Source: Nageia nagi
Lineage: Eukaryota > Plantae > Pinophyta
DNA length: 64,000 nucleotides
Reading direction: 5' to 3'
Assembly (NCBI GenBank): GCA_050084985.1
Contig: JBITNC010000001.1
Span: forward strand, 133,300,001-133,364,000
Positions 1,298 through 57,871 of the stretch are shown piece by piece; positions within the stretch are counted from its first letter, which is position 1; every line of letters begins with the position of its first letter. Under the pieces are notes generated by a model, which was not told the DNA's origin, did not search any database, and saw only the letters and a list, made by a program, of their open reading frames with translations. Both the position numbers and the translations under genes were made by a program.

Positions 1298-1585
1298 TGT
1301 TGTGCCCTACACAACTCGCCCCAAAATTTTGCAATTTTGGGAGCCCTTTGCAACTCAGACCTATCAAGGGTCCAATTAGAGCAACCTTCCAAAGAATCCA
1401 AAATCAAGCCTACCATCCTAGTGTCAAAGTGCAATCATACACCCAATCTCAATCATGTTGCATTGAAGAGTAAAACCCTGGAAAAATGGCTAAGTTTGGA
1501 GACTTCAGGTCGAATCTAGGGGGGACAAGGAAGTCCAAGTCAAGTCCAAACCAAGCAAGTCAGATCCAGGCCACTCCTAGGCCTA

Positions 1586-2532
1586 GCGCATGCTCCAGAA
1601 AGACAAAATCTTGTCTTTCTAAGACATGCGCTCAGGCCAGGAAGACGCCTAGTGTCAAGGTTAAGTCCCAAAACTCGAATTGGGTCACTCCTTGACCCAG
1701 CGCATGCCATGAAAAGACAAAATCTTGTCTTTTTGGGGCATGCGCCAGGCTTAGAGAGATGTCCAGGACAAAACGAAGGCCCAAAACGGACAAGTCAATG
1801 CACACCAAAGCTAGCGCATGTCTCAAAAAGACAATCATGTCTTTTGGGAGCATGCGCCCAAGTCAGGAGGCCACCCAAAAAGACAAAGTGCACTCACCCG
1901 AGGCTAGCGCATACCTCAAAAAGACAAAATCTTGTCTTTTGGGAGCATGCACCAAGCCTAGTAAGGCTTCCGGACAAGATGAAATGGAAAATTTGACTAA
2001 GGCACAGAGCCTCAAAGCCTGGATGCCTCTCAAGCATGACTAGAGAGGCTGGCGCATGCCTCAAAAAGACAAGTTCATGACTTTTGGGAGCATGCGCCAA
2101 GCCTAGGAAGACACCAGGACGAAGCAAGCATGAAAATAAAACTAAGTCCTAAGAGCAAAAAACCAAAACAAGGAAAATCTTACCATCTCCAACCCAACAT
2201 ATGCCTCAAAAAGATAGGATCCTGAATTTCTGGATCATGCACCCAGATTGGAGGAGCTGAAGAAGTTGGAGGGCATTTCGAAAAGACAAAATTTTGTCTT
2301 TTGAAATCATGCGTCGGGCTTGGAGGGGCCCCTGGATTGAGCCAATGGAGAAAAATGAACAAGTTGAATCCCACAAAAGTGCGCATCAAGCAAGATAAAG
2401 TCTCAAGACTGAGCTCTAGGGTCAAGTTGGAAGAAAAGGAGTGCAAGGAAGGCCAACATGGGGGAATGCATTCAACCCCAAGGCTCGCGCATTCTCTAGA
2501 AAGACAAAATCTTGTCTTTTCTGGGCATGCGC
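1586..2532. repeat. Array of 8 dyad-symmetric ~46-bp repeats, GCGCATG-N6-AAAGACAA-AATC-TTGTCTTT-N6-CATGCGC
   Basis: Copies start at about 1586, 1700, 1814, 1907, 2052, 2197, 2271 and 2487, separated by non-identical spacers. Confidence 0.92.
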
Positions 2533-2690
2533 TAGGCTGAAAGACACCCTAAACCGCCCACGTTTGGTCCTGATCGGCTAGAAGCAATGTTTCATGATGG
2601 CACACATCTCGAGGTCAACCACCTGGAGGGCTAGGATGTATCTTTCTCCATAATCTAGCCGAATGGGGTTTCAAGGAGGCCAACTTTAGC

Positions 2691-2698
2691 TATAAATA
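2691..2698 (+). promoter_or_regulatory. TATA box upstream of the LTR-encoded ORF
   Basis: GCTATAAATAC 220 bp upstream of ATG 2911. The same motif sits at the equivalent position in the second copy (34396-34403, minus strand). Confidence 0.65.
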
Positions 2699-2910
2699 CC
2701 AACTTGGAGGCTTCATTTTTCCAAAATTCAAATCACACTCCTCTTCTACACTTGCACCAAAATTGCAGAATTTTGAGTTTGAAATTCGTCCAGAAGCTGG
2801 GAAGGCTTGTGCATGGAGACAAGGAGGCTAGGAAGGTGACATGAAGGTCCTAGGCTAGCAAGAAAGCCAGCGCATCACTTTGGAAGGTCCTTGTCACTCG
2901 TCGAGACATC

Positions 2911-5900
2911 ATGACTAGTTTCAAAAGCAATTCGGCCAAGGACTATATGCGTGATCTGGAGAACATCAGGCATGAGTGCATCATCACTATATACGAGCGA
3001 CAAGACCCCTTGCCCCAAGGGGCTAAGTTCTCCAAGAATGGACTAGCCACTATCGGAGACACAAACTGGCAGAAGGTGGATCCGATGCAAATGAGGGCTA
3101 AGATCAAGAACAAGCCAAATAGCGAGCTGAAACAAGATATTGTCTTCTTCTCTGGGCTCTCAAATTGCACCTTCATCCCATTCATAGTCCCATTCCTAGA
3201 GTTCTGTTTGGAAGTCGGCCAACATTGGAAGAAGGGCGAGAGAGTACTCTATTACATCAAAGGCAACATCATCATGGATTTCAGCCCCGAAGCCATCAAG
3301 ATAGCATTTCAGTGGACTTCGGAGGGCAACTTTGAATACTTGGAGAAGTCGTTGGCATGCTATCGAGACACCAATAGGGCAGCCACAACAATCAAGAGTT
3401 GGATGTTGGACAAACATCATGGCCTAAAGGGCAACGCACTCATCAACGCCCCTCGCTCCCACTTCTATCTGTCCGTAAAATTAATGATCCTCATGTTGTC
3501 GTGAGTTCTTAGGAAGAAAGTTGCATCCAAATTCCGAAAACAGTTCTTCAGCTTCATCATGGAGATTGCTAGAGGGAAGAAGATCAAGTGGAGTAAGGAG
3601 TTGAGTGACAGCATCATGGATCAATTGTTATCAGTGGGGACCACACGCAAATTTTACCTCAACTCTTCCTTGGTATACCTGCTACTTTATGGCAAGCAAA
3701 GACCTACAGCTTCAGGGAAGGCAAACTTGATTGAATGAGGAACGTATGCCATATGGAAGTGCTACCTTAAGTGGAAGATTGAGAGGAGATGGGAAGACTT
3801 CATGATGAAGAGTGATGGATGGGAGCATGAAATTTACAAAGAACTCAAGGGAGAAATTACACTTGCTCAAATCTCCAATTCAGCCTAGGATGCGTTGAGG
3901 AGACATGGAGACTTTTTCATCCATCACCAACATTACTCTTACATTCGCCTCTACGGATAAGTCGTGGAGCCATATCAACTGCCTAGGTATGTGAGCAACA
4001 AGATGCTCCTAATGGAGATGATGAGGCAGTTGACCTACTTGCATGAGCATGTCTGGCAAAAGAAATCAGCCACTTCTAATTTACCGATCATAGTAGGGGA
4101 GCATCAGTGCAGAGCGTGGGCGGATGTGACCTCCATGATAGAGGAGTTGGAGAAGTACAACTTCCAGAAGATGTCAGTCACTAATCACTATGATCCTGAA
4201 CATCGGATTCATGACTTCTATATGAAGTAGAGGAAGAGAGCCTATGAGAATAGGCCACATAGAAATGAAGAGCCATTCTGGAACATCAGTACTGAAATGG
4301 AGGTGAAAAGGATCCGTGCCAGGATGCAAGAAGAGGCCCAGAAGCAACAACAAGAGGTAGAAGCTTCCATTGAAAAGAGATTGTCTCAATCTCGGGGAAG
4401 GAAGCCACAAGAATCCACATCTAGAGTCATCCAAGTTCCACCGACGATTGAGGAACCTGTCAAGCAGTATGCATCCACGCGTGGGAAGAATCCGGTTAAG
4501 TAGGTAGTGCAACAAGTCAAGGAGATAGTTGATGAACATGATATGAGAGAGTTGGAGCATGTGACGACTAATAAGGTGGTGAGATGTGTGAGAAATAGGA
4601 AAGTAGATTCGTCGCCACCCCAGAGGCCGCCAAGAGAAGTAGTGTAACATCCATCACAGACTATCCCACCATCAAGATCAGAATCCTCGGGCCGTTTATA
4701 TGAAGATCACAACATCCCTCAGAGAGAACAAGCAGATAGGCATGGAGATGAGGATCATCAAAGCATGCTTACAGAAGGGGAATATGAAAACATACCTCAA
4801 GATGAGTCTGATGAAGAGCCAGAGAACAAGCATGTAGCCAGTACTGTTCCCGGAGAAGATATTCAGGATGCACGGGGTGATGAAGAGCCGTCATTGGAGA
4901 TATTGAAGGAGGTTCATAATCATACCACCTCAAAGCCTTCAACATCTAGAGGGAAAAGCAAAACCCAACCCCTGAGTCAATACCAAGAAGAGCCCAACTG
5001 AAGAGGGGGTCTCAATCCAGATTATCAATGACACCCGAGGAATCTACAGGAAAAGAAGAAAGGCCTTTGAAGAAAATCAAAGAGAACGACATCACCACCG
5101 CTGAGGCAGTTGTTGAGACCCACCAACCTTTGCCTAATCGTGAGTGGGGTGTAGATATAAACGAATGTTTTGATGTCTTTAACATGGATGTGGCAGAAGA
5201 GTTCAGGCCGAGAGGAACATATGATCATATTGGAGAGAGTTCCACTCGTTTGGAGAGGAGTCAAACTTACATGCACATGACAGATAATGTGGTTTGCATC
5301 AAAACTATAGTGGCTGACAAGGATAACTGTCAAGGCCCAGGAGACTTCAGACAAATAAATCAGATCGTCAAGATAGGCCCCATTGGTGTGACTAGCAGAA
5401 AACATGTGATCGTCTCTAACACTAAGGCAATCGCAAAGGACGAGCTGCTAAAGGAGGAGATAAAAAGCTTGAAGAAAGAGCTGGCCGCCCAAAGGAGATT
5501 GACTCATGAGCTTGAGTCAACCAAAGTACCCACAAAAGAACTAAAGAAAGTCAAACCTCTCAAAGAAGGTATGATGGCAATGAAGCAAGAGGTGGTGGAT
5601 GAGATCTTAACAATATTGAGGCAATTCATTGAGGCCCTTCACAAGGTTTCGTTCGAAGAGAATCAGCTGAAGTACATTGTCACTGAAAGGGCAAGCTACA
5701 CCAGATTTTAGAGTCCCAGCAACCCATGATACTGAGGTATGAGACATCACAGGCTCAAAGGCCCAAGGATACTAAATTCTGCAAGGATTACTAGTTCTAT
5801 TGGGGTGTAAACAGCCAAGTACTTACCCACTTCCAGGAGGTAAGAAAGGAGGTGACCGCGATCAACGATAAGGCCCACTCATGCATTGAGCAGATGGAAT

Positions 5901-6216
5901 TTTAGGTGCAGTACTTGGAGGAAGACACCACCATTCGGGAGGCAGAAGAGGTAGTGGCAGAGGTCAGACACCTCCTTCAGAGCCTGATGATGACGGAAGA
6001 CGTGAACTCCTACCAGTCGGAGAGTAACTTGAGGCACATGCTACGACTCACACAGGGAGGATTGAGATGCAAAAGTTGGTGGACGAGGTCAAGGACAGTG
6101 TTGCTGTTAGCAGGCCGAAGTTCTCGGAGATGTTGTGTGGAGTGGAACTTACGACGAAATTCTTGGTCAAAGGTTTCGAAGACCGAGTTGTGGGCTTGGG
6201 CCCACCATTGGCTTAG
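2911..6216 (+). pseudogene. LTR-encoded ~1,100-codon ORF of unknown function (conserved N-terminal domain, acidic low-complexity middle, coiled-coil-like C-terminus), disrupted
   Basis: ORF pieces 2911..3504, 3964..4230, 4297..4503, 4765..5001, 5028..5711 and 5906.. are collinear with homologous pieces at 34180-30970 and 52986-56444. Confidence 0.85.
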
Positions 6217-7328
6217 CTATTATTTTGTTTTAAATTAAGTTTATTTTTATTTTCCAACTAGACATTTTCAGTATTATTTTATTCCCAAACTCGTGAAGGA
6301 TAAAGATTTGCTCCCAAGAGTTTGGAAGAAATTTTGTAATGCCATGTGGCGCATTTTTAATGAACCTCATTTTATTTCTGACATATATAACTAGGGTTAG
6401 GGCAACACTGTTGATTGCACCTAAAAATCATTTATACCCCATTTTGATTGATTTGTGGGGCATTGACATTTTGATAACTTAATAGAAACTTTGTTGGACC
6501 AAAATTGCTCTTAAGTGTTAAATGTGGTGTATATGGATGCTATTGTGATTTATTTACTTGTTCATGTTGGAATGTGAATGCGAATGAATGTTAGATAGTG
6601 CTATCTATGTTCATTCTATCATTGCTTGATGTTATTTCAATTGACTTGGTACATTTTGTAAACTTCATTGAGGTGGACGAAAGCTTGTTTGCATATCTTG
6701 AGAAGTAGTTGATTGATATCTCATGGATGATATTTCACCATTTGCAATATAGACTTGGTAATCTTGAGGGCTTCACTGATGATGTTCGCCATAGGAACTT
6801 CACCCAAGTCCTTTAGTTGTACCTTGGTCTCACCCTATCACATTGCCTCAACTTCACGCTCCATCCATTCAGCTATTCGTGTTGTTGGCTAGTTGATCAG
6901 ATAGTGGGTGCCTCGAAACTGCATTGAACCCAAGTGAACCAACTTCCGAGCATCCTTACCAGCCCGTGAGCCTGTATGCCCACTATTGCATCCTATTCCC
7001 ACAATCTTTCCACCATCTTTCTTCCTTTTATTTTACACTTTTTTCTGCGGTTTTCGCACCCCAATTTTCCCTTTTCAGCATTTTAGAAACAACCTTGTTA
7101 GAGCCCAAATATAGAACTCGGAGTCCCTTGAATCCACACATAATATTCATGTTAGTGGCAGCTCTAAACATCTCAACCGTATCCTAGGTTATTCTCGCAT
7201 AACTCACGAAGCCAAACCTTTGGGGTAACCAATCTCCATAGCGGGAGGGAGTAACGTCCCTCCACCTGAGGCGTTGGCATTTTTTCTCATTGCTTCAGGG
7301 TAGGAATGAAAAACTCCCCAACACGATG

Positions 7329-12758: not shown

Positions 12759-13370
12759 TGTTGTATCTTACACAACTTGCCCCAAAATTTCGCAATTTTG
12801 GGGACCCTCTACAACTTACATGCGTTTGGCACCTAGTCAATGCAACTTCTCCACGTTCCCAGATGAACTCAATATCATGCCTATTAGCCCATCACCCAAA
12901 TGTGCCCAAACAGCCCAATCCTAGTCATGTCGTGTTCAAGAGTTAAAACCCTCAAAAAATGGCTAAGTCTGGGAATTTAAGTCGAGTTTAGGTGAAACTG
13001 GAAAATTGGTATCGAGTCGGAGCCAAGCAACATGAATCCAGGTCACTCTTAGTCCTGGCGCATGCTCTAGGAAGACAAAATCTTGTCTTTCTACGACATG
13101 CGCTTAAGCCAGGAGGTCACCCGATTTAAATTCCAAGTGCGGAAAGTGGAACTAGGTCACTTCTGGACCCAACGCATGCCATGAAAAGTCAAAATCTTAT
13201 CTTTTTGGGGCATGTGCCAGGCTCAAGGAGGCATCCAGGATGGAATGAAGGCCTGGAAACAATGACTTAGTGCATTTCAAGGCTGGCACATGCCTCAAAA
13301 AGACAAAATCTTGTCTTTTGGGAGCATGCGACCAAGTCTGGAGACTACCAGGAGGGACTTGAGACCCAGA
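12759..13370 (+). mobile_element. Truncated 5' end of a third giant-LTR copy with three dyad repeats
   Basis: Starts TGTTGTATCTTACACAACTTGCCCCAAAAT, like position 1298. Repeats at 13058, 13172 and 13286 (114-bp spacing). Right boundary is approximate. Confidence 0.85.
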
Positions 13371-27600: not shown

Positions 27601-30600
27601 ACAATGCAATACCAGGCCCAAAGGGTTCAACATTGGCTTCCAAGGAGACAAGTAGGGCACACAATGTGCAAAATATGATCACTGAAGGAGATATGCTGCT
27701 ATGGAGTCTCAAACCCCAGATCTGCAAGATACATCAATGGTAGAACAACCACAATCTACCAGATCTATGGATGCCACATTGAAGGGCCTCCTCATAGGCT
27801 GGCTCCAAGCAAAGAGACCAAGTGCAATTTCGGAATACCACCGGATGGATTCAAAGATGATGACCACTATGGACACCTCAATGAAGGCCAAGCCTCACAA
27901 CACAAACAACCACCTCAACCACAAATTAGAAGGTGTTCTAATCCTCCTAAACTCTACCCTAAACTACACGCCCAAGGGTGCTTGATGCCACCAAGTCTTT
28001 AGAAGCTCCGAAGAGAAGAAATAGTTTCAATATCAATATTCAATATATCCTCACAATGATGCTCCAATGCCTTATATAACGCATCTTGGATCTAGATCTC
28101 ACCTAGGAGTTATCACACCAACCTCCAAATCCAACGTTAGCCTCCTAGAGGCCCTCAAATGCCCAAATGTGGGGTTTGGTGTGTTCCCCAATGCTCCTAG
28201 GTGTCATGCATACCCAACGTTAGCCTTCTAGAGGCTACCCAACACCAAATACATATTATCATGGGCCGACATGGGGTCTAGAGTCTTCCCCAAGTGTGGT
28301 GAAGGTGTGCAAGTGTGCAATGATGCTCCCCAAGTCCAACATTGGGGTCATAAGTGTCCATCCATGCCATGTGTTTGGCTATTTGGGTGTTATACAAAGT
28401 CTTGGGATAACCACAATCCAATCGTTGGGATCTCCAAATGCATAAAAATAACAATAAAATAAGTAATCCTATACTTGGAGGAAAACGTCCCACTTTGGGG
28501 CTCATAATGTGGGTCCAATGGACCATTATTATTCTATCCCAAGTTACTACAAATGCAATAAGACAAATTATTTACAAAAGGGATATCAAAGATCCCAAAT
28601 TTCCTCAATTTTGCTCAAAAGAGGATGTTACAAGCAACGCCCCTGATGGTAACAATCTTGTGTTCATTGCATTGATATAGAATAAAGATTTGCATGTGGA
28701 TGTTCCATCTATGACTAATACATTAAAATTATGTCATAGTGTGAAATGTCTAACTCTCTTGCAGAAACAAACCAGCCAAACTCTTGCTCATTAATGACTT
28801 GGGGTGCTTGAAAGGCACTTTGAAAACTCAACCAACCTTTTATCCTTTCATATATTTTCCTGGCTCTTCAATAGCTTTCAACCACTCAAGTATTATTCAA
28901 AAGCATGTGATTACTACACCGCTTTGACCAAATATTTTGAGATTTGATCATTATATAAAAGGGAATGAAGTGCAAACAAAGAAAATCATGAATACTCGCA
29001 AGTTTTTTAACATTTTTGGCATCCATGGTTATGAAATTTACCTAAATGTCATATGAATATTTTCTATATACTAAAATTATTGATTTGAATTGAAAGTAGT
29101 GCCAAGAATCATTTGACAGCATCCAAGCTCTTCTGCTCTGCTCTTGAGGAGATAAAACCAGCATTGTAATTTTTCTTTTTGAAGTGTTTTGGGTCTGTGA
29201 TTATAAAATTTCCAAAGTTGTCATTTGAATATTTTCTATATACAAAACTATTAATCTGAATTGAAAATATTGCCAAGAATCATTTGACAGCAACCAAGCT
29301 TTTTGGCTCTGCTCTTGAGGAGATAAAGTGGGTAATGTAATTTTTCTTTTTCCAAAGATAGTCACCAACTTCAAACATTTAGCCAGAATATATCATACTG
29401 AATGCACTAAAGTGGTTTGAAATTGCATGAGTTGGAGGGACGGCCTCTAAAGAGTTTCTCCTGTCACTTTCCTATAATCATAAGCTTTTTAAGAGTTTTG
29501 GCTGGTATGGTTATGAAATTTCCAAAAAAATAAGTAATTTGGATAATTTTTATGTCAAATAAGGTAAAAGTAAAACTATTGATTTGAATTCAAGGTATGG
29601 TCAAGAATTAATTGACAGCATGCCAAGCTCTTTTGCTCTACTTTTGAGGAGAGAACGGGTATTGCAATTGCTCTTTTTCCAGAGCTCATCACCAACTTCA
29701 AGCATTTCACCTCTAAAAAGTTTCTCACAATAATCTTACCCAGTTTGGAATTTGAACACAATAATCGTACCCAGAAATTGAACAAAGTTGAAGAATTTTT
29801 CATGCATTACAAGCCAATCTTCTATTCTCAAGATATAACTAAGGAAACTGTTGGGCGCTTTTTCTTTCCTACCTTGCTAATAGGAAATTGAACTTGCAAG
29901 GCCTGCAGAAAGACACCAACACCTGAGTGATAGGGCATGACCCCTACCCACTACAAGGACTAGTTACCTCAAAGGTTTAGTGATGGGTGTGCGAGAGGTT
30001 GCTCAGGTGACCAGTTGAGATGTTTCAAGCTATCTCCAACTCAAATACAATTTTTTAACCAAGGACTTGAAGGGTCCCTATCTCCAAAAATTGGAGTTTC
30101 TCAAAAGAAAAAGGAAAATGTGGTTGCAAAAGCTATGCAAAAAAATTAAAAAAATAAAAGTAGAAGGTTGAGAAGACAATGATATATGAATTCAGCACAT
30201 GAACTCAATGTTCTCATCGACTGGTAGAGGTTTTAAGACTCAACTCTCATGGGCTTGTCATGGGTTCCACGCACTCCGAATCCAACTTGTTGGGCAACAA
30301 CACGAATGACCTAACAAGAGGAGCTTGAAGCTAAGGCGATGGAGGTAAAAGGGGTGAAATGTAGGTAGACCTTGATCAAGGGAGTGAAGTTCCTATCCTA
30401 AGCGACATATGGGAGCCATCTTAAAGTGTACGAGTCCTAAATGCAAACTATGAATCATTACATAACCATGAGTTACTTGAAGTACTTCTAAGAATATTCA
30501 AGCATTCTTTTGTCCACCTTAAACCAAATTTACAAAATGCACCAAGTATTCAAGACAGCATCAGAAAGTAACATCCATTCACATTCATAGTTTCAAATGA

Positions 30601-33600
30601 AAGCATTCACAATTCAATTACTTGGAGTATATCACATTCACAAATTGAGAAAACTTGTGAGCTTGAAAGTATTAAGTAAGTTGTCCAATTTGCAAAATGT
30701 CTAATCTCCTACAAATGAGCCCAAATGGGCTATAAATAGTTTTTTTGAAAACCCTAAATGTTGCCCTACCTCTAATTTCAAAATACGAGAAAATACAAAT
30801 GGACAAACCACAAATTGCCACATGGCATTACAAAATGTCTTCCACGCTTATGGGAGCAAATCCTCTTCCATCACAAACTTGGGAAATTAAATAACAAATA
30901 TAATAAAAGTATTTTATCAAAATAAGTGTCTTTTCTTGGAAACAAAACAACAAACTATGTAAATTGTGACTAAGATGAATGCGGGCCCAAGGCCTCAACA
31001 TGTCCCTCGAAATCCTCATCCAAGAATTTGGTCGTGAGTTCCAATCCACGCAGCATCTCTTATAGCTTTGGCCCGTTTCTAGCAATGCAACGTCCAACCT
31101 CTTCAATCATCTTCTGCATGTCGTTCTTCCAAGCATGAGCTATCAACAGGTGTCTCAAGTGATTTCCAATCTGATAGGTGTCGATGTCATCAGTCATAAT
31201 CAAGCTGTAAAGGAAGTGTCTAACTTTTGCCACTACCAGTTCCTTATCTCTAATGGTGGCATCATCATCTATAAACTTAACCTAGACATCCATCTGAAGG
31301 CTGGTGTTAGCCTTATCATTAAGTGCCTCGACCTCCTTCTGCACCTAGAAATGAATAGCTATCTGATTGACAACACCCAAGTAGAACCAATAATCCTCGC
31401 AAAACTTCACATCCTCGAGCCTCCGATCCTGTGTCATTTCAAATTTTATTATCATTGGCTTTCAGGAATCCAAAATTATGAGAAAGTTGGCTCTCTCCAC
31501 TACAATGTCTTTCAACTTTTGTTCCTCAAGTGTGACCCTCTGCAATGCACCAATGAATTGTTGAACCACCACCAAGACCTAATCAATCACCTCTTGTTTT
31601 ACTACAATCATACCTTGAGGGGTTTTATCTTTCGAAGCTCCTCTGTGGGTACCTTAGCTGACTCTAGCTCTCTAGTCAATCTCTTTTGTGCAGCTAACTC
31701 CTTTTTGAGGCTTTTTATCTCCTTTTCTTTCATCATCCCATCTTTGGTAATTGCCTCAGTGTTGGATATGATTGCATGTTTCCGACCAACCAAACCAATA
31801 GGACCCGTATTGATGATCTGGTTTACCTTCATAAGGTCTTCAGGTCGTTGGGGATTCTCCTTATCTGCGATTATAGTCTTGATGTGAATCGCGTTCTTGG
31901 CCAAATGCACATAAGTCTAGGTCTTACCCAGGCGAGTGGAGCTTTCTCCAATCTGATCATTCTCTTCTCTTACTCCAAACTCCTCCCTGACATCCATGTT
32001 AAACACATTCAAACACTCCATATTAACTCCCCATTCATCTGTAGGTGATGGTTGATAAGTTTCAACAATTGCTTCCTGAAAGATGGTGGTGCCTTTCCTG
32101 GCCCTTTTCAAGGGTCTCACCTCTTCTTCACTGTGCTCTTCAGAAGCCTCTATTGTTCGAAACTGAGAAGTTCCTCTTCAACTGTGCTCTTCTTTGTACT
32201 GTGTCTAAGGTTGGTCCCTTACCCTTCTCAGTGGATGGTTCTCAAGCAACAGGATTCTAGACTAACTTCACTATCTCTAAAGATCTATCTTCTTGTTGTG
32301 TACTCAGGATGTTGTCACGTTGTGTTGCATTCACTTCTTGTTCACCGTCTAAATCTCCTACTTCTCCTTCCTCTTTACTATCATCGGGTTCATACCTAAG
32401 ACGAGAGGATGAGGACCCAGATGGTGCAACAACAGGTGATGGTCCTGCAGCTTCTTCTCTAGGTGGTCTGGACGGTGAGGATGGATCCTTCTCTTTGTTC
32501 CTAACACCTCACCATCTTGTCTGTGGCCACACGTTCCAGTTCTCTCACATCATGCTCATCAACAGTGTTCTTGACTTGTTGTACTACCTATTCCGCTGGA
32601 TTCTTGCCATGCATTGATGCATATTGTTCGACTAGTCCTTCAACTGTGGGAGGAAACTGAGTGACCCTGGAGGTGGACTCTTGTAGTTTTCTTCCCTTCT
32701 GCTATGACAATCTCTTGTCGATGGTGGCTTCAACAAGTTGTTGTTGATCATGGGCATCCTTGTGCATTTTGTCATGGACCTTCTTCATTTCTACCTTGTT
32801 GCTCACATTCCAAAAAGGCTCTTCTTCTCTAAGTGGTTTATGTTTGTATGTTTTCTTCCTCTCCTTCATGTAAAACAGGTGAATCCTATGGTCGAGATCA
32901 TAATGATTGGCGGCAGGCATCTTGAAGTTGAATCTCTCCAACTCCTCCTCATGGTATCAATGTTTGCCCAAGCCTTGCACTAATATTCTTCCACTATGAT
33001 CGGCAAGTTTGAAGTAGCCGATTTCTTCTACCACACCTTTTCGTGCAAATAGGCCAATTGCTTCATCATCTCCATAAGTAGCAATCTGTTGCTCACAAAA
33101 CTTGGCAATTGATATGGTTGCACAGCTAACCCATCGATTCTAATGTACAAATAGTATTGATGATGGATGAAGAAGTCCCCATGCTTCATCAACACATCCT
33201 AGGCTGAGTTAGAGATCCTAGCCATTGTGATTTCTCCTTTGAGCTCCTTGTAGATCTCATACTCCCATCCATCGTTCTTCATGATGAAACTATCCCATCT
33301 TCTCTCAATCTTCCATTTGGGATAGCACTTCCAAATGGCATATGTTCCATTCTCAATCCATGCTACTTCTCCTTTAGTCGTGGCCCTATACTTGTCGTGG
33401 AGCAACATGTATAACAGGTAGGAATTGAGGTAGAATTTATGAGTGGTGCACAATAGATGATAACTGATCAACGATTGTGTCACTCAAGACCTTGCTCCAC
33501 TTGATCCTCTTTTCTCTAGCCATCTCGACAATGAAGCCAAAGAATTCTTTTCTGAACTTGGAAGCATCTTCTTTCCCAAGAACTCTGGACAACATTAAGA

Positions 33601-36600
33601 TCATCAACTCAACTGAAGGGTTGAAATTGGAGCAAGGGGCATTTGTGAGAGCATTCCCCTTTAGTCCATGGTGTTCATCAAGTATCCAATTCTTGATTAC
33701 ACCGGCATCCCTGTGAGTCTCTTGGTAGCATGCTAGTGACTCTGCTTCACTGTACTCGAAATTTCCCTCAGAAGTCCATTAGAATGTCGTTTTGATGGCA
33801 TCAGGGCTGAAGTCCATAATGATGTTTCCTTTGATGTCACGAAGGACTCTCTCTCCCTTTTGCTATTGATGACCGACCTCCATACACAATTCAGGAAAAG
33901 GTGTTGTGAATGGAACGAATGCACAAGTGGAAAGCTCGGAGAAGAAGACAATGTCTTCTTTGAGGTCACTGATTGGCAACCCCCGTATTTTCTCCCTCAT
34001 TTGCATAGGGTCAACGTCTTGCCAATCTGTATCTCCAATGGTAGCAAGACCGTTCCTCAAGAATCTAGCCCCCTAGGGAAGGGCGTCTTGTCTTTCACAA
34101 ATGGTGATGATGCAATCTTGTCTCATTTGTTCGAGGTCCCTGGCAAATTCTTACACCAAATTGCTCTTGGAAGTAGTCATGATGCTCAAGCTTGCAACAA
34201 GATCTCCCAAAGGTGATGCATCAGTTGTGGTGAAGGCAACCAACATTGGATTGGCTTGTCTCCCAAATGCTTGCGCAAGCCCTAGGATGCTATGTGGTGA
34301 AATTCAAACTCAAAAATTTGTAATTTCTTACAATTTTGGCGCAAAAGTAGAAGAGGAGTGCGATTTGAATTTGAGAAAACGAGGTCCCAAGCTTGTATTT
34401 ATAGCTGAAACTGGTTTCCAACAAACCCTAGTCGGCTAGGTCAAGGAGAGAAATTCATCTTAGCCGTCCATCTGGCTTACCTCGAGATGTGTGCGTGCAC
34501 CAATTTTCATGTCTAGCCGGCCAGGACCAAACATGGGGATTCTAGAGCTCCTTCTAGCTTGGTTCATGCCTAGAAAAGACAAGATTTTGTCTTTCTGGAT
34601 CATGTGCTAACCTTGGGGGTGAGTGCACTTCCCACGTTGACCCTCCTTGCTTGCTTGTTTTCTCATCTTGACCCTGAAGCTTGTCCTGGGACCTGAACTT
34701 GCTTGATTTTTGCTCTTTCTGGGGTCTAGGCTTGTCAAATTTCACCTTTAAGCTCAACTTGGACACTCCCCAAACTTGGTTCTTGATTCAAAAAGTCATA
34801 TTCTTGTCTTTTTGAGGCATGCGCCAACCTCTCATGTCTGCCCAGTTTGAGCGCATGGTTTAAAAAGTCAAGTTTTTGGCTTTTTGAATCATGCGCCAGC
34901 CTCTGAATGTGGCCAGTTTGGCCTGTTTGCAAGTTCTTGCCTCCGTGGCTTAACCAAATTTTCATGATTTTTCATTCCTGGAGGCTTCCTGGGTTTGGCG
35001 CATGGTCCAAAAAGTCAAAACTTGTCTTTTGAAATCATGCACCAGCCCTCCTAGAGGTGCTGGAGCTGAACTTGGGGTTCTGGGCTTCATGCCTTGGCCA
35101 ATTTTTCATCTTCAAACAAATTGGAAGCCTGTCTAAGCTAGGCACATGATTAAAAAAGAAAAGATTTTGTCTTTTTGTGGCATGCGCCAGCCTCCTGGAA
35201 GCCTCAAGTTCACTTCTTGATCTTCAAACTTGTCATATTTCTCCTCCCACCCTAGTCGCATGGTTCAAAAAGACAAGATTTTGTCTTTTGAAATCATGCA
35301 CCAGCCTTGAAGTGTCCTTGCCTTGTCTTTTTCAAGCTTAATTTCGGTCCAATCTACTCCTTGTCCTTGACGCATGCTCCAGAAACACAAGATTTTGTCT
35401 TTTGGAGGCATGCATTGGGCTTGAAAGTGGCCTAGATTGCCTTTTCGAGTCTCAACTTTAGTCTGGATGGCTCCCTGACCTAGTCGCATGTTTCAAAAAG
35501 ACAAGATTTTGTCTTTTGAAATCATGCATCAACCCTAAGAGTTGCCCAGTTTGGCTTGACTCTATCCCGACTCATCCTGGGCTCCACTAGTTCACCTAAG
35601 GTCAACTTTTAGTTTTCTAGACTTTGCCATTTTTGAGGAATTTCAGTTTTTCAACTTGATATGACTAAGTCTAAGCAAAGAATGAGGCTTCAACCTGTGG
35701 GACTCGACAGTGAAGCTAGGTCTTGCGACATCACTTGGACTAGACAAGACAACAACATGACAAAGTGTTCACATAAGGCGTTGAGGGGGAAGGGTCCCCA
35801 AAATCGCAGGATTTTGGGGCATGTTGTGTTTTAGTCACAACAGAAACCATGGCAGCCATTTAAGTTGCGTGATGTGATCCAATGTGAGAAGTCAAGCACT
35901 TAGCAAGCATCAGCCATTTCACAAGACAACTTGCTTATCGCATTTTTATGAAAGACAAGAAATCCATGTGACTGGATGGATTCCCTTACAGTATACAAGC
36001 ACTTTTGAAATTTGTCAGTAAGTGAGTTCATCAACAGAAGGAGATCTAAATTTGTACTGAAAGCTAGCAATCCTGAACTCATTACAAGTTTGAGATCAAT
36101 TATGTGTGTTTGTTTGTTTCACATTATATTGTATCCTAGTATTAATTATACAGACTTTCATCATCTATTTAAGCGCTATTTAGTTATGAAAAGACACCTT
36201 GTATGTGTGCACAGTGTACCCTTGTTTCTGTCATCTTTCATCTATCATTGCACCACTTTCCTTATATATGATATTTGAAACTGTTTCATATATTCATGTT
36301 CACAAAGAGATTGTCCAACGACAAGTGGCATGAAAGCATTCATTGCCGAAACTTATCTTTATGCACGAGTGTTGGCTTGTAGCCATGGTCAGTGACAAAA
36401 GGGTTTGACTTGTTGCCCAATTTCTTTGTAGCTCATATTTTGCAGTCTGTGATCTCTCCTCTTAGTTGGTGGCATAAAGAACTTCAGAATATACATAGTT
36501 GTTTTCCTTAGATTGATAAACCTTGTCCCGTATCTTCTACATTAATATTTTCCCTGCCTTGTTTTCAACTCCCAGATTATTTGCACATGTAATCTACAAA

Positions 36601-47275: not shown

Positions 47276-49945
47276 TTGGGCCCCCCCAAATACCCAACGT
47301 TGGATTAGATGGGCCTGGGATGACTCCTAGGTGAGTTCCAAACACAAGTAATGTATAAATAGACATTGGAGCTTCAGTATTGGACAGCCATTATTGATCA
47401 TTATTACACTTATTCTTCTACTTCATCCGGTGGACAAGACCTTAGCGGAGCACTAAGCATATTCCTTAAGTGGAGCACCTAAGAGGGTAGTCAAGCGTTG
47501 AGATGCTGATTATCTACAACATTAGTGGAGCACCTTTCCCCATCCGATGGCATCCCGAGGGTTTACTTCTATCGTTCGGTTGGTTAGCTAGATTTTGAGG
47601 AGGGCTCCTTCAGTGGAGAGGATTCAAAATCTGAGGGAGTGAATCTATCCCATGGTTCTACAGTTGTTCAATGTTGAAGATTTCAGAGTGTTGTGCCCTA
47701 GTTGGCTCCCTTGAGGCCAACGACTACCCATTGGGCTTGGTATTGTATTTGCTACCATTGTATATCATTCATGTTGCCAAAGGGCATTTGGATCTCATGC
47801 TTATGTGTATTGCTTCATCTTGTGCATGCGTTGGATCTTGATGATTGTATATGTTTGTGATTATCATTCGAAGGCATCTTAATGTGTGAGGGTTTGGATT
47901 TTGCATGTATGAGCTAGACGTTGGCATTATGAGATTGTATTCGTTGATGTATGCTTGCATATGCTAGACATTAGCATTTTGGGTATCTGAATGTTTAATG
48001 TTAATGCCCTAACCCTAATGTTGCATGCTTGAGGGTTTGTTGTGTTGTGTATGATGCCCTAGACTTGACGTCAGGGCTTGATGATCCTATATTGCTAGTG
48101 CTAGCTTGAATTTTAATTTTGGATCATCGCAAAAGATAATCACATAACCCAATTCTAACATATGCTTGGAATTGAATCTGTTCATTGACTATATTGTATT
48201 AGACATGTAAGATATACAACATGAATGGTCCTTATATTTACCTCTTACAAGTACACACTACTAGAAGAAAAGCACCTACATCTACAAAATTTTATCAACC
48301 ACATAAAACTGCATATATTAGACAATATAAACAACAATACCATTTCTTAGATGTCACACTACCACATCCATGTTACTTATTAAATTACAGAGGCTCTTTA
48401 ACATTTTGGAATTTGTAATTACCCTTCATAATTTTCATGAGTTGGAAGATAAGGTAGGTGTAAACAATATCTTATGTGTTTGTAAAACAACTTGATTTGT
48501 GGATTAGTGAGAAATGTATACCATTCTAACCCATAAATAATGTTGTTTCTCTTCAAGGAATTTACTTACACTTTATTTGGAGTGGGACAGTTAAACTCGA
48601 AATTTTTAGGAAAGTGAAATGCAATTACAACGTCTTCCCTATCCCTATTTTATCACTAAAGCCAGTTTTTAAAATGAGTGAATCTGGCTTTGACCCTTTT
48701 TCCTTCCCAAATAAGTATAGATTTCCTTTTTTATATCATGCAAGCTGAATATTCTTAAGATACAAAAATCTAATGTTTGTCCATGTCAGGGGAGTTGGAG
48801 AAGTAATGGGAACACTCCACACCCTACATGGTAGAACAAGTAGAAAACCTGTGGATAAACAAGTGTTGTCCTGGGTGACTTTGACATATTAGATACCTCT
48901 GGTCGTGGCAACTAAGCCAAAGGAGGCTCCCACAAGGGTGGTTTTTGCCATATCAAAATAAAAAGATACAAGAATATAATATTAATGGATGTGTTTCCTA
49001 AAACCAGCTCAACAATAAACTACTAATATCACTACACATTGGAACTCTCGCTTTCTTAATAATTAAATTGCTAAAGCTTTTAATTTTACTAAATTTGGAT
49101 CAACTCTTCAACTATATTTTTTTCTTAAATGATTGCTCATAGTATGTATACGAGATTGCCATTACCAACAGTTTGTCTTGGGTTTTCCTTCTAATAGTTT
49201 CTTTTCTAATTTCCAATACTGATTGAAAAACTTTGATTATTGTGGGGGTACTTCTTAGGTTGGCCATCCTTATATCTTAATGTTGCATATCAAGAGATTT
49301 TGTTGAAAGAATGGAGTATAGTGCTCATTGGCGATAACTAAAGAAGAAGAAATTATTGAAAATTGGAGTCTTGGACAGATTCACAATTAAATATTTGTCT
49401 ACTGCTCTAGTTATTGCCCACGAACATTACACTATGTTCAATTGGCATTTTTAGATTCTCCTAAGAAGGATTCTTATTGTAGGATTTCCATGATGGATAT
49501 AGTTGTTTGTAGTTGATTAGGCCAGTCTCTTGCAACATGCTCTGATTTAGTATGCTCGATCCGTCTCACATTGTTTGGTGGTTTCAGGCACAACCTTTAC
49601 AACTACCATATTTCCTCTTGTGTCAAATTCAACAAGGGTTTCTAAAGATGCCTCTTCTTGCTAACGTCTATCCTCGTAGGGTCAAAAACACTTTATGATC
49701 CTTTTCAGCATTTGAAATTAAATGGTAATCTATCACCACATAATTGGCCACCCATCATGCAGAATTGATTGTCCAAGCAATTTAACCTAATTCAATATTT
49801 AGCACAATAGTTTGTACGTTATACATTCCTTTTTGCATTTTTCATGAGCTCATGCCATTCCTTAAACATTTGCATCCTTTTATTAAAAACAAGGTGTGGA
49901 CGAAGCAAAACCTGCCTCATTTTTTTTCAAACTTTGGGGACTCTC

Positions 49946-51141
49946 TATGACATCCCCCTTGCATGATTGTAAGTAATTATTGAATCCAACGGATTCCCCT
50001 TGTAATATATTTTATAATTGCATTGTACTTTCATATTGTAGCTTGGGATAGAAGACTTAATGGGTCAATGGACCCCATTGTGAGCCCCAAATGGGACATC
50101 TCCCTCCAAAGCATAGATTAGGTGTTTTATTTTACTTGGAGATCCCGATCTTGATTGTGGGAATCCCAAGGTCTGTTTTACACTTAGATGAATGGATGAG
50201 CACTTGTATATATGTGCCACCATTAGGCAGACTCCTAGACTCCCACGTTGGCCCATTATGACACCTAGATTCCATGCATGGCTCCTAGACCCACATTGGG
50301 CATGCATGACACTCCTAGACCCCCACGTTGATATTTATGGCACTCCAGACCCCCACATTGGCATGCTTGACCCCAAGGCACCCACGTTGGGCATTCTAGG
50401 CCCCCAGGAAGCTAACATTGGGGATTAAGGAGTTGAATGATGACTCCTAGGTGAGATCCAAACAGAGTTGAGTGTATAAAGAGACATTGGAGTCTAATTG
50501 TTGGATGTATCTGATTATACTATTATCTCTTGATACCATCCTGTGGACACAAGTCTTACCAGCGCTAAGCAATCCCTTAGGTGCAGCATCTAGGAGGGCT
50601 ATCAAGCTGAGGAATCATGATTGTCTACGGCATTAGTGCAGCACCCTTGCCCATCCAGTGGTATTTTGAGGTTGAGCTTCTACCATTTAGTTGGTCGCCA
50701 GGATCAAAGGAAAGCTCCTTCGATGCAGAGGATTCAAGTTCTGAGGGAGCGAGGCTGTCCCATGGTTCTACTTGTCCGTCTAGCATTGAGGATACATGAT
50801 TTTCCCTAGTTGGCTCCATGGAGGCCAACGTCCAGCTTTGGGAGCTAGGTATTGTATTGTTGTGACATTCATATCTTCGATACAGTCATTGGGCACTTGG
50901 ATCTCACTTTTGTGTTGTGTATACTTCTCTATTGGCATCATTTGATTACTTTGACATGTATGTGTTTGAATGAGCCAAACGCTGGCATTGTGGGATTGTG
51001 TTGATTGATATCTGCTAGTTGTAGCCACACGTTGGCATATTTGCATTATTGGGATTTGATTTGGATGTCCTAGGCCAGACGTTAGGGTTTATTGAATTGA
51101 ATTTGCTTAATTGCACTTGAGTTGGTGTTTGGATCCTTACA
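49946..51141 (+). mobile_element. Solo LTR (~1.2 kb) inserted near the 5' end of the giant Tat LTR
   Basis: T(A)TGACATCCCC...GGATCCTTACA ends, near-TSD CTCTC/CCCTC, related to 9794-10996 and 42229-43506. Confidence 0.82.
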
Positions 51142-51396
51142 CCCTCAGCCTAAGAATGAAGCCGAGAAGGTTCGCACATGGAAAGAGTATTTCCGGACGA
51201 TAATGGAGAGATGAACTAATCAGAAAAGCCCGAAGTGCAACTTTAAAATTCACTCGAAATACTTGCTTACAACAGACGAAATACTTTCTAAGTATCCACT
51301 CATAGAACCAAGAATGAAGAGATACAAGCATCCAAGGGAGTTCAATCATGTTTGAAAAATGGGCAAAATCATCAAGATCACACATTAAAGTGATGT

Positions 51397-52510
51397 TCGC
51401 ATGGCCGAGGAAAGATGCATTTTCATTTGTCCTAGAAAGAGCGACTGTAACTTGCATTACTCTTCTAAAATGGACACCCCTTTCATTGACACATGGCATC
51501 TGCAAAAACCACTATAAAAGCTCAAGAAGGGAGATAAAACGGCTAATTCATACTTCACTTCGACCCCCTCAAGGTGGTCACATGGTTTGGAAAAGTCACA
51601 TTTCCATCTTTCGAAAACGATGCGACCACCACCCTCAATCCAGTTTTGGAGCTCGAAAATCAGCTAAGTGTTTCAAACTCCTCCTCCAAAGGTGTTTGCA
51701 TGGTTTATAAAAGATGCATTTTTATCTTTCAAAAGGGATGTGACCACACTTACCTAGACGTTGGATGCACAACATGAAGCTCACTTTGATTCCATTGGAC
51801 CTTCATTCTGGTCGCTCGGCTAGAGACACTTGGCAAGAAAAATTGTTATAAAAGAAGGAAGGGCATTCATTTTTGCCTTAGCTGATCCAATGTAGTGCAT
51901 CTAAAGGTGGTCGCATGGTTTGAGAAAGTTACAATTTCATCCTTGTAAAACAAACCAACCACCTCATTTCTTACATGTTAGCCTCCAAAATTAGCTCAGT
52001 ACTTAGCCATAAGCATTTTCAAGGTGTTCGCATGATCCAAAAGGGTTACATTTTCATCTTTTAAGGGACATGTGACCACCCCTTTCAAGCGTTCTTGGTC
52101 CAATTCAGTTGTTTGCATGATTTGAAGAAGTTACATTTGCATCATTGTAGAGGCACGCGATCACATCCTTTGAATGAAAATGGACATTTGTTGAGGGTTT
52201 ATCATTAGTCCATCAAAACGATGCCACTTGGCAACCCAAAAAGCTATAAAACGTAAAGGGGACTTAGTTCATCATTGCAAATCATTTGTCCTCTTAAGGC
52301 TGGTCACATGGTTTCCATGTGTTACATTCTCATCTTCCTTGAGGCGTGCGACCGTCCCTTTTTGTTCTCACATCAAGTTAGATGGCCCATATGCATTTAC
52401 CATCATATCATTTAGTTTTTGAATTAGTCTTATCCTACAATAGTCAACTTAAATGCATATGGTCACATGGTTCCAAGAATATAGGCATCCATCTTTCAAA
52501 AATGTGTGCC
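51397..52510. repeat. Array of ~8 dyad-symmetric ~48-bp repeats (TCGCATG...AAAG(A/T)T(G/A)CATTTTCATCTTT...CATGCGA-like)
   Basis: Copies start at about 51397, 51578, 51696, 51911, 52028, 52113, 52304 and 52463. Confidence 0.75.
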
Positions 52511-52985
52511 CATTCAAGTTGCATTGATTTAGTCTTTATCAATGCACTGTTGTCTTAAGACACACCCGTACATCTATGAAAGCAATCTTGTGTTTGTTTT
52601 TAGTTAGTTAGTTAGTCATTTATGTCGTCCGTAGTCCTTTCATTTTGTTATGTACCATAAATTCAACCTTCCTTGTCGCATCATTTGCCCAAGATAGAAA
52701 TTTGGTACGACCAGGTCCCTCAAGCCTTGCTTTGCATTAAGTTGGGTACCACAAGGTGGCTAATGGGACATATGCATGCATTTACCATTTAAGGCATATT
52801 TTGAACATTGCATGTGAGGAGGCCGACCACCTTTCGTCATAAACATTTACTGTTTAGTTTGCTTCCATTTGCATGTCTCATCATTAAGGCATACAGGTTT
52901 GCCAGGCATTGTACACCTCCTGCATCACTCCACCACGCCCGTACAGTCGAACCAGTGTCAGTCAAGTCCAGTCGCTACGAACCCG

Positions 52986-55900
52986 ATGTATCTATGCAGG
53001 TTCAGAACGGCGAAAATAAACTCCAAGCTAGGAAAAACCCGAGAGCTGCAACTAGCCATGCTAACTAAGCCTAGCCATGTTCGATTTGCCAAGGAGAATC
53101 CTAAAGATCCATTGAAACAGGCCAAATTCAACAACCTCTCCAACATCCGGGATACCAATTGGTCACATACCAATCCTATCCGAACGTTGCAGGCCATTAG
53201 TGAGTTAGAAAAAAACCATATCCTCAAGCAGGTCATCTGCACGTCTAGATTGGCCACAACCACCTTAATCCCTTTTGCTATACCTTTTCCTGAACTTCGC
53301 TACAAAGTAGGCAGGCATGCCAACTTCAAAAACTGCACCTTCTGTGACACCGATGGCAAGAAAATCCTTGATTTCTCTCCACAAGGGACTAAGGAGGCCT
53401 TCAAATGTGGTGGCTAAGGAGTCGTTTACACTCAAAAAGACTCTCCAGATTATTATGAAAAATCTCAACAAGCCGGGGATCTCATCGGAGATTGGCTTGA
53501 GAATGAGAGCAAGCAATTCATAGGAAACAAATTCATAAATGCAAAGAGGCAAAACTTCTACCCCACAGTTTCCAGGATTATTAGTATGCTACTTAGAGGC
53601 ATTGGTAAAGAGGATGAATTTAAGTTTCAAAAAGAATTTATCGGATTCATCACTGTAATTGGAAACAGACAGAAGATAAAATGGAGCAAGGTGATAAGTG
53701 ACTCCCTGTTGTTCCAACTGGCTCATATTAACTCCTCAAAAAGATTTTACATGAATTCCTACCTTGTCTTCCTCCTCCTACATGGCAAAATAAGAAAATA
53801 GCCCATGCAGACATGGAAATCTTGAATAATCCGGAGAAACTTGTATGGAGAGCTTATCCTAAATGGTGGCTAGAGTTCAGATGGGATCATTATGCCATAA
53901 GAAATGATGGATGGGAATATCAAATATATAAGAAGATTAAAGAAAGGCAAATGGTAAACAGGATATCTAATTCTACCATTGAAGCCATCCGCGGACATGC
54001 AGATTATTTCTTGGAAGACCCTACACACACATATATTCGAGTCTATGGTTCTGAAGTCAGGCATTATCTCCTGCCCCGATATGCCAGCAATCGGTTGATT
54101 CTCATGGAGTTTTACAGACAGTTTTTATTTCTATATGAAAATGTCTAGAAGAAGAAAGATGCTACAACAAACCCCCCCATTTCTATCAAGGAATGCACTT
54201 GTTCTACTTGGCAGGAGGCCAAGGGAATGAGCATTGAATTGTCTTTTTATCACTTTAGTAAGGAGCAAGCAACTTCCCACTATGATCCTGAAGGAAGGAT
54301 CCAATTTTTCTATAGGCGAGCTTTCAGAAATCTTGTAACCTACGAGCATAGGCCTCTTGGAGATTAAGAAAGGTACAAGAATAAGAGAGAGGAAAAGCAA
54401 ATTCAAGAAGTGCACCAAGTTTTGGCACCTGAAGGTCGGATTGACAAAAGAATCTAGGGCTTAAATGAGCCACATACAGCCCTAGCTGAGAAATCCACTT
54501 CCTCTTCCAGAGTAAGGAGACACCAAGGACCGAGTAGGAGAACATGCCACTCTGGGCAAGACTGGACCTGAAATCTATTCCGTCATCAGAGAAATTACTG
54601 ACATCGATGTCATGATGAAGAAAGGGTATCCAGATTTTCCACTCCAAGAACTTAAAGATGCCATCCCAAAGGACATCCCCATGCTCCCTATCGTACCTGT
54701 CTGTGCAGAGAATCCCTTGGCTCTCCCAAATTTCTTGACGCCCGCCAAAGACTATATAGAAAATGAATTCTTAGAGCCTATTGAGGCAAAAACCTAGGAA
54801 AATGCTCAAAACACTCCCACAGCAAACCAACCTGAAGAGCCTGATCACTCTAGTTCATCCTCAGATTTTGAGACATCCTCTAAATCTTCAAGCCCGTATA
54901 AGACTCGCGGTCTGATACCAAAGATACCCAGAGTGTGGACATTGAAGCAAAATCCAAAACAGAGAGGATCAACGAGACTTTGCCAATTGAATCAATACCA
55001 GTGAGGCAGACCGCTTCTTCTGAATCTACCACTCTAAGAAGGAAGAGGAGATTGTCCCCCAAGAAAGAAGCCTCTAGAATAGCCCCTAGCAAGCCTTCAA
55101 ATTTGAGCAAAGCTTCTACAGTTGGAGGAGATGGAGGAGATGAAGAAGACAAAGGCAAGAGTGAAGACCAGAGAAAGAAGAGAAAGCAACAAGAGCATGG
55201 CAGCCATAAACCATCAAGGAGTAAGGAAAAACCAGTTGATATTAGAAGCTAGCAATTGAGAATTGAGATCCCTAGAGAGTTTGCTCCTACTAATACGGAT
55301 ACCACCCTGGCCAATATTGCATAAAGTTTTGGCCCTCAGAAGAAATATGATTTTGACATTGACGCAGTCATCAAAGATCTCCAAATGAGCTACCGAAGTG
55401 ATGATGATGAATCTAGCCAAAGGATGGAAAATGCCTTAGAGGACTCTCCGATTGAAGAAATAGATAGATTCATATCCATGAAATAGAACAAGGTGGCCAT
55501 CAATAGATGCCACTCCAAAAAGAAGCATCCTCAAAAAAACATGCGGGGACACATCGAGGAGTTCAACGTCAAGAAAACTGGGTGGGCAAGACGTAAGCAC
55601 GCCATCAATTACAACGTGGATGAGATGGTCAAACAAGGTATCGAAAGGGAGAATACAAAAGAGCTGAAAAAAGACCTGACTAGTATAAACAAACTGGTGA
55701 AGGAGATAGAAGCTGCCAAAAATGTCCATCAAAGACATCAAGGTGCAAGCCTCATTGAACATTGGCGTGACATCGACCAAGGAGACCCTAGTCAATGTTG
55801 TGACGAGAGTAGTCAACGAACTTTCGCTTTGATTGGCTATCCTCATGGATGAACAAAAGGCAAAAGAGAATATGGCCACAGCCGTTTCCCAGTTACTACA

Positions 55901-56444
55901 GAATTTTCAGAACCATGAGCATGCCATTCAAAACATAAGGAGGATGTCTGTAGGACAAGTGGGCCGAATATAGTATTGCCAAGAGTTCACCTACCATCTA
56001 TGTTGGCTAAGGTTCGTGGCAGAAGAATGCGCCAACCTCACTAAGGCTAAAGCCGATCTGTTGTTCACTCTAACTTTTCAACTGAGTCAATTTGTGCAAC
56101 CAATCAGTTTCATCAATGAGGACAGAAGCGCAAGGCGAGTTGAGTTCTTGATCCAAGAGGTCCAGAATGTATTACGTGAGCTCATCTTCACAAAAGATGT
56201 AAATCTGTTGAGGGCTGGAACTCACATTGAAAATCAGCAAAACCTAGCCGTTTGGAATTTTCAAATGGAGGCTACTTCTCAATTCATCTTAGATTTCCAC
56301 AACAAAAGGGATGAAGAATTGTTAGGCGCACTTGCCATAGGACTTGCTAAGGTTAGGGCCTTCTTCGATGACAAGTCTCATGGGATTCCTAAGGGTGTCT
56401 TTGTTGCCGCTCACGATGAAGTTGTTGGTCCCACAGAGGGATGA
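52986..56444 (+). pseudogene. Divergent homologue of the LTR-encoded ORF, disrupted
   Basis: NIRDTNW, ILDFSPQGTKEAF, KIKWSKVISDSLLFQL...RFYMNSYLVFLLLHGK, WRAYPKW...NDGWEYQIYK and YLLPRYASNRLILME align with the other two copies. Start codon is uncertain. Confidence 0.82.
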
Positions 56445-57724
56445 ATGAAAAATGCATATTTTATCAATTTTAAGACAATTATTATTTTTTTAAACTTGCA
56501 TTATGACGGATGAGTTTTTGCTCCCATAGCTGCAAGTAGACTTGATGTGATGTGATGTGATGTGATGCAATATGATCTGGTGTGATCAGATATTGATATG
56601 ATGTTTGAGCGATATTGTGTAGCCGCAGTTTTTTTGTTGTTGATGGTTTACTTTTGTCAATATGGTATTAGGGTTGCATGGGTGTTTAAAGAAACTCTGC
56701 AATTAATATTAGGGCGACGCTTCATTTAATGAAGTTGTCATATGTATGCTATAAGTATCCCTAGTCAGGTCATTTTTTGAAGATACACATGTAGAGAGAG
56801 ATAAAGACATATAGATGCATAGACGAATGGTATATACTATAGAGAGCTCTTCAATATATGCAAAGTTAGATACTTTTTGGAAGAAGTTCTCCATGATGCA
56901 AAATCTCTTTGATAGCATTTTGGATTTGAGGTTTCCAATGCATGTATGTATGATTTATCATTTTGGGAAACTTTGTAATTAATGCAAGTACAGTCTCTCG
57001 CTTCATGGGATTGCAGATGCCTATATGACATTTTTATCGTGTTGTGTTATTTATACATTTATGAACATTTGCCTTGAAAGTTTGGCACTTTAAGAAAAGA
57101 TTATTGAATATCTTTCTTAGATGTGTGATTGTTTCTGTAATTTGCATAAAGTTGTAGCATTTTGGGTAACTTTGCTCTTATGATATTTGATTGAAATCAT
57201 CTGCTAGGATTCGAATAATTGAATGATTCACTACATCACGTTTTCCATGCTAACTATTGCCCCGTGCTCTTGCTTAGGAAAGATCTGGACCCAGTCTTTT
57301 CTTTCTTTGCTTGATACTCTGAGCAAAAATTCCTAATAAATCTAAAAGTTGAAAGCCCCAAACCCTGTAAAACGGTGAGCAACTGTTACCTATTTTACCA
57401 TCAACTACCAAACCTCCTTATATCTCTCCATCATATTCTTTTGCTTTTGTGTATTATCACGTGAACATTAACTAAAAGAGAGCCCAATAGGTCCGCATAA
57501 TTGTGAGTTGACCATTCCCCAAGCGCATACCTCCCCCTGAGCGATCCTATTGACCATAAACCACCATAGTCCAACATCTTTTGCATTATAAAGTTCAAAC
57601 CATTCATATCAAAGAAAGCTTAGGGTTAACGTTCTTTCAAGCAAGGGTAAGTAACGCTACTCCACTCAAAGGCGGTGTTCTTTACTGCAGGGGAGGAAGG
57701 AATACGCATCAACAGCACCCGAAC

Positions 57725-57741: not shown

Positions 57742-57871
57742 CCTACTCCGCTTTTGTCTTCAATTTTTGTTTCTTTTATCTAAAGCAAGTTGGAACCCTT
57801 CCCATCTAATTCGAATATCTTCGATTCGAACCTATTTAATTCACCACAAGTGTACACCCAAGCTAGGAGAG

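Follow-up and report, generated by a model that had tools for sequence, protein, structure and literature searches.

Location of the Open Reading Frame within the Long Terminal Repeat

The window analysed here, a 64-kb stretch of the genome of the conifer Nageia nagi (contig JBITNC010000001.1), contains three homologous, decayed copies of a long open reading frame (ORF), as found by translation and local tblastn, and this ORF lies inside the long terminal repeat (LTR) of a retrotransposon, between the repeat's own ends (Table 1). An earlier note on this DNA had called the protein LTR-encoded and had given no documentation of it, which the mapped ends now supply; that the ORF lies between these ends goes beyond that note, as do the array of palindromes, the second block with a TATA-like box and the ORF-less derivatives. 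The features of an LTR, namely TG...CA ends and 5-bp target duplications, were found in the solo copies 1 and 2. The LTR of copy 1 interrupts another Ty3/gypsy element, whose reverse transcriptase (RT) match is at 548-1186 on the minus strand, and contigs from both of two runs (X1 and X2) join 1291-1293 directly to 7324-7325, which represents the empty site of copy 1. The LTR of copy 3, with an unrelated LTR nested in its 5' end at about 49947-51141, ends with CATCAACA at 57714 and is followed by a sequence like a primer binding site (PBS) and then by gag-pol, found behind copy 3 only. In the relative L007 the same 3' end is followed by unrelated DNA, and the LTR boundary of copy 3 is thereby fixed. 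An element with two LTRs was not seen, as the element of copy 3 runs past the window and no 3' LTR was found behind pol in the related loci.

Reading Frame, Decay and Selection

Stops and frameshifts break all three ORF copies; in two relatives, L005 and L004, stop-free ORFs of 554 and 562 aa, respectively, continue through the points near 4960 and 5700 at which copy 1 changes frame, so that the region of copy 1 represents one long ORF. Within the core, copies 1 and 2 are 70% identical and either of them is 38% identical to copy 3, and in the tree copies 1 and 2 belong with L001-L005 to clade A, and copy 3 with L007 to clade B, in addition to single deeper lineages. The conserved blocks named in the earlier note were recovered in all three copies with small departures (YLKW and SDGWE in copy 1; TTF, RIKWSK and SDT in copy 2; QGTKEAF in copy 3), and the run RRKRRLSPKK, like a nuclear localisation signal, was located as described in copy 3, in the frame 54902-55252. 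Copies 1 and 2 also share stops at two same codon positions (3886-3888 and 4501-4503 in copy 1), with synonymous sites near saturation, which would fit recurrent decay at methylated sites.

The purifying selection before decay, which had been proposed from the persistence of the blocks, is borne out by the pairwise ratios of nonsynonymous to synonymous divergence (dN/dS). Thus, for copy 1 versus copy 2, with dS near saturation at 1.87 and dN of 0.175, the ratio is 0.094 (bootstrap 0.05-0.14; 431 codons) and the identity by codon position 0.83/0.85/0.52, while the pairing of the same copies in two shifted frames gives 1.42 and 1.32. Versus the closer L005, the core of copy 1 has a ratio of 0.12 at dS 0.90, the linker 0.21, and the C-terminal parts 0.13-0.25. 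Since synonymous sites are near saturation, and saturated versus copy 3, these pairwise estimates are rough, with a clear direction; those of copy 3 versus L006 and L007 were left out because of mixed frames. The putative heptad-like tail was recognised by a crude window score.

Palindrome Array and TATA Boxes

Imperfect palindromes in the 5' 1.3 kb of the LTR form an array that may constitute candidate binding sites, directly upstream of the gene in every clade seen. The 19 core matches in the window are divided between copy 1 (eight), copy 2 (seven), the truncated fourth copy (three) and copy 3 (one), so that 18 of them belong to the 5' portions of the first two copies and of the truncated one, and ten shuffles give 0-3. 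The upstream arrays differ, with one variant motif present four times in copy 3 only and another six times in L006 only, where the patterns were drawn from the same sequences in which they were counted and L007 is without its 5' part; such differences between clades are predicted by shared descent alone. CpG depletion is alike in the arrays and the ORFs and gives no sign of protection.

A CTATAAA box stands upstream of the ORF in 8/8 sequences scanned, and this TATA box 1 is likely the promoter of the ORF. A sequence like a 3' splice site just before the ORF start (L006 2790-2817; about 52890 in the window), with TATA box 1 about 750 nt upstream, suggests an intron in the 5' untranslated region in clades B and C. 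The conserved cis block after the stop holds a second TATA-like box, likely serving as the promoter of the genomic RNA, which is of the type TATTTATA in clade A and L009, the sense TATAAGTA in copy 3 and L007, and TATAAATA in L008. The telomere-like word TTAGGGTTAGGG and GCCCA sites flank this box (6390-6445; ends of U2, L005, L009 and L004) and can be likened to the pairing of telo-box and site II, characteristic of promoters of dividing cells.

Relatives and ORF-Less Derivatives

A profile of natural fragments, run against 1.84 billion representatives, recovered 73 proteins with E no higher than 0.001, a second search recovered 13 of its 2,755 candidates, and among ten clusters looked up a name was found on one, 'hypothetical protein'. 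A search for longer proteins with the N-terminal fragment gave no homologue, and the viral contigs searched gave no relative. At least nine related loci were confirmed among the 581 pattern matches listed in the metagenome scan, and run X2 yielded 6,349 contigs covering all 30 bins, a count that fits a high-copy family. In a Logan-type record, one family fragment (P0081) is joined to an Alg9-like mannosyltransferase, which may reflect a chimeric transcript or mis-assembly; the folding alignments were made without it and without several very short or frameshifted matches.

Three short LTRs without the ORF and without a protein match start in the way clade A LTRs do. They retain 3, 5 and 8 copies of the motif, and each also has the second box, while TATA box 1 is missing in two of them; all three are either nested in further members of this ORF family or adjacent to them. 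L002 and L004 each contain an additional clade A piece, and in L009 an element with 1.5-kb LTRs (3962-5463 and 8514-10011; 91% alike) and no long ORF interrupts the core of a family ORF.

Parent Element and Predicted Fold

The PBS-like site behind copy 3 is putatively a tRNA-Asn primer site, where tRNA-Asp or tRNA-Asn would be expected in TatII, and is separated from the LTR end by a gap (57715-57724) above the usual 0-5 nt. In the gag-pol region the capsid and protease matches are weak (protease E 0.06), the aRH domain is at 60.85-61.27 kb, where two RNase-H-like pieces (60982-61272) exceed the curated cut-off for RVT_3, and RT/RH follows at about 61.8-62.9 kb (RT at 62104). The element behind copy 3 is, therefore, of the Tat type by the RVT_3 domain between protease and RT, and the order of protease, aRH and RT is that of TatII. 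An aRH between protease and RT is described for TatI and gymnosperm TatII, with a PBS gap of 0-5 nt used for searching and a PBS assigned in only 59% of published TatII elements (PMC6317226), and the TatII lineage is linked to gymnosperm hosts (PMC13477047), so that the element itself points to a host of this group.

The structure models were built from homologues rather than from the window copies. For both diverged models the best structural match is VANC21 (PDB 9LNK), over more than 200 residues at 6-8% identity, and a VANC/PMD-like fold is predicted for the first ~300 aa of the core, a likeness to PMD being suggested at the fold level by this match together with the published similarity of VANC-MAIN to PMD (PMC13547354; bioRxiv 2024.09.27.615353). 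Foldseek against PDB and viral models gave no match, and PDB sequence searches gave chance matches only, with the 9LNK sequence unmatched. No relevant Pfam family was matched by window fragments and homologues, which includes PF10536 (PMD; 0/55 members at E up to 1), Transposase_28 (PF04195), ATHILA ORF1 (PF03078) and, for VANC, DUF1985; a match to DUF7405 in one of 55 members, 35 residues long and below the cut-off, was set aside. Thus, of the resemblance to PMD/Transposase_28 ORFs of Tat elements suggested in the earlier note, the Tat element was upheld and a PMD-like fold received indirect support by way of VANC21, but no Pfam match to PMD or Transposase_28 was found.

Table 1. Coordinates of the ORF copies, their LTRs and associated features (window positions unless a related locus is named).
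Feature	Position	Strand	Basis or remark
ORF copy 1, ~1,100 codons, decayed	2911..6216	+	translation, tblastn, dN/dS
Globular core, ~445 aa, conserved	2911..4245	+	identity, dN/dS, homologue models
Linker, low-complexity, charged and Pro/Ser/Thr-rich	4246..5010	+	predicted disordered in homologue
C-terminal part, purifying selection, heptad-like helices	5011..6216	+	dN/dS 0.13-0.25 vs L005
ORF copy 2, decayed	34180-30970	-	translation, tblastn
ORF copy 3, decayed	about 53.0-56.44 kb	+	translation, tblastn
Copy 1 solo LTR, 6,026 bp, TGTTG...CAACA	1298..7323	+	5-bp target duplication CGATG
Copy 2 solo LTR, 5,994 bp	29849..35842	-	target duplication GTTTC
Copy 3 5' LTR, ~6.6 kb without nested unrelated LTR	49895..57714	+	5' end placed by eye
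Fourth copy, truncated: LTR 5' end, 3 palindromes, no ORF	12759..13349	+	tblastn, motif scan
8 imperfect ~45-bp palindromes, copy 1	1579..2535	.	GCGCATG arms, AAAGACA-n6-TGTCTTT core
7 palindromes, copy 2	34575-35497	-	core motif scan
Variant palindrome array, copy 3	51592-52330	+	motif scan
TATA box 1, copy 1	2690..2698	+	about 220 nt upstream of ATG
TATA box 1, copy 2	34404	-	motif scan
TATA box 1, copy 3	52244	+	motif scan
Cis block after stop, copy 1: TTGCTCCCA, TTGTAATGCC, TAGGGCAAC and TATA-like box at 6429	6290..6445	+	alignment
Second TATA-like box, copy 2	30738	-	cis block
Second TATA-like box, copy 3	56749	+	cis block
PBS-like sequence	57725..57741	+	10 nt past LTR end
gag-pol behind copy 3, decayed, integrase past window end	57800..64000	+	domain matches
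ORF-less LTR	L009 3004-1258	reverse	array and 3' cis block kept
ORF-less LTR	L009 16323-about 13800	reverse	array and 3' cis block kept
ORF-less LTR	L008 1687-1	reverse	array and 3' cis block kept

Elsewhere in the window, two short minus-strand frames at 36671-36963 are bounded by AG...GT and resemble exons of a host gene, without a Pfam or PDB match; they may be tRNase Z-like, and a long intron of that gene may contain copy 2, which has the same orientation as the gene. Several LTRs of another family with ~30-bp CCCCACGTTGGC tandem repeats are found at 10078-11006, 42229-43507, 46785-48132 and 49947-51141, and an element of ~6 kb at 14895-20846 has ~1-kb LTRs that are 81% alike and minus-strand ORFs (16021-18169) without a Pfam match.

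Interpretation and Alternatives

With moderate confidence, the ORF is regarded as an accessory gene of a TatII-type Ty3 element inside a 6-kb LTR, likely in its U3 part, and its product as a likely nuclear DNA-binding protein with a predicted VANC/PMD-like fold that would bind its own array and counter silencing. The array, TATA box 1 and the ORF would thus form a cassette in U3, with TATA box 1 driving the gene and the second box the genomic RNA, and the protein, as an activator or anti-silencer bound to the palindromes of its own LTR, would keep the element family transcribed against host silencing, by analogy to VANC on the VANDAL motif arrays. Such a cassette may have entered U3 from a 3' internal position through an upstream shift of plus-strand priming; being in U3, the gene would be copied into both LTRs and survive in every solo LTR, and those ORF-less LTRs that retain the array would rely on protein supplied in trans. 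A more far-reaching proposal, which we make tentatively, is a retrotransposon counterpart of VANC with promoter, gene and array as one 6-kb unit, in which solo LTRs would be trans-activators and ORF-less LTRs cheaters, the protein and the palindromes co-evolving by clade in a high-copy gymnosperm lineage.

Four rival readings were weighed. The array persists without the gene in three LTRs, and direct DNA binding of PMD-C proteins is stated as undemonstrated in the literature, which would suit an LTR-internal PMD-like protein acting as a general activator or by way of chromatin proteins of the host, with the array as an enhancer for host factors; this alternative, the strongest of the rivals, is still rather unlikely, because the structure that matches best is a sequence-specific factor bound to DNA and the array keeps its place next to the gene in all clades seen. 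Likewise, TATA box 1 is canonical in all eight sequences and in clade A all 5 aligned ends have a second box that is canonical when read on the minus strand, its first base being variant in one of them, as if the ORF were in R/U5, downstream of TATA box 1 as the only true promoter, being the first ORF of the genomic RNA like Ogre ORF1, and the second box were an antisense promoter. We hold this to be somewhat less probable again, given the sense TATA-like box at the position of the second box in copy 3, L007 and L008, and the ORF-less LTRs, 2/3 of which lack TATA box 1 and 3/3 of which keep the second box. It is improbable that the likeness to VANC comes from helices arranged alike by chance and that a new fold acts at a post-transcriptional step (genomic RNA export, packaging or integration targeting), as PMD extra ORFs exist in other Tat lineages (PMC4408406). 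The choice of the same plant transposon accessory protein by two diverged models, over more than 200 residues, argues in the same direction. Non-autonomous DNA transposons in place of LTRs, for which the arrays could be likened to TnpA-bound sub-terminal repeats and which would agree with the lack, in 9/9 related loci, of tblastx similarity to the gag-pol that follows copy 3, are scarcely credible in view of the TG...CA ends, the 5-bp duplications and the PBS-like site with gag-pol behind copy 3.

What the extra ORFs of Tat elements do is a long-standing question, which a candidate DNA-binding protein and a short clade-specific candidate site in one LTR make testable; in the literature covered, DNA transposons alone are credited with sequence-specific anti-silencing. 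With a protein of predicted VANC-like fold next to the array, each LTR may have acted as a switch complete in itself, likely keeping the element family active. In solo-LTR formation the gag-pol is lost by recombination and the regulator stays, and a gene in the LTR could bear on the high retroelement retention in gymnosperm genomes. The LTR position also suggests why internal-region surveys missed or mis-placed such ORFs.

Comparison with Known Systems

A protein gene in U3, hence in both LTRs and in solo LTRs, is the sag of mouse mammary tumour virus, to which the likeness is in layout only, the protein and host being unrelated. Additional ORFs are placed in the internal region in a review (PMC7264820), and the passages covered from PMC3485330, PMC12859917, PMC11728184 and bioRxiv 2026.08.24.746577 contain no case of an LTR-internal ORF. 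No LTR-internal or VANC-like ORF in TatII was found in the literature search, with most subscription journals, bioRxiv supplements and Steinbauerova 2011 outside it. Tat lineage II is reported without extra ORFs (PMC4408406), whereas among 27 TatII elements forward extra ORFs occur 5' in 23% and 3' in 26%, with no CDD domain listed (Neumann et al. 2019; PMC6317226). The latter, being of the same lineage and known from a summary without LTR-relative position, fold or function, may be the present ORF family.

The PMD ORFs of Tat elements, such as PMD-A of Ogre and the antisense 3' PMD ORF of the gymnosperm Tat lineage III, are likewise Tat-clade accessory ORFs whose N-terminal domain is conserved and whose tail is coiled-coil-like (PMC4408406, PMC5418596), and their fold is linked to the present one through VANC. 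Unlike them, the present ORF has no PF10536 match and is contained in the LTR, theirs being in the internal region, and it is sense where that of lineage III is antisense. The closest comparison is with VANC21 (DUF1985), the anti-silencing protein of the Arabidopsis Mutator-like DNA transposon VANDAL21, which acts on repeated motif arrays of VANDAL elements (PMC5735166). Both are transposon accessory genes with variable low-complexity regions and a helical tail, accompanied by family-specific repeated motifs in non-coding parts of their own element, but the sequences have 6-8% identity without a Pfam match, the function of the present protein is putative, and its motifs are palindromes of ~45 bp in contrast to the 8-9-bp words of VANDAL; and while VANC belongs to a Mutator-like element, the present gene belongs to a retrotransposon and is carried inside its LTR.
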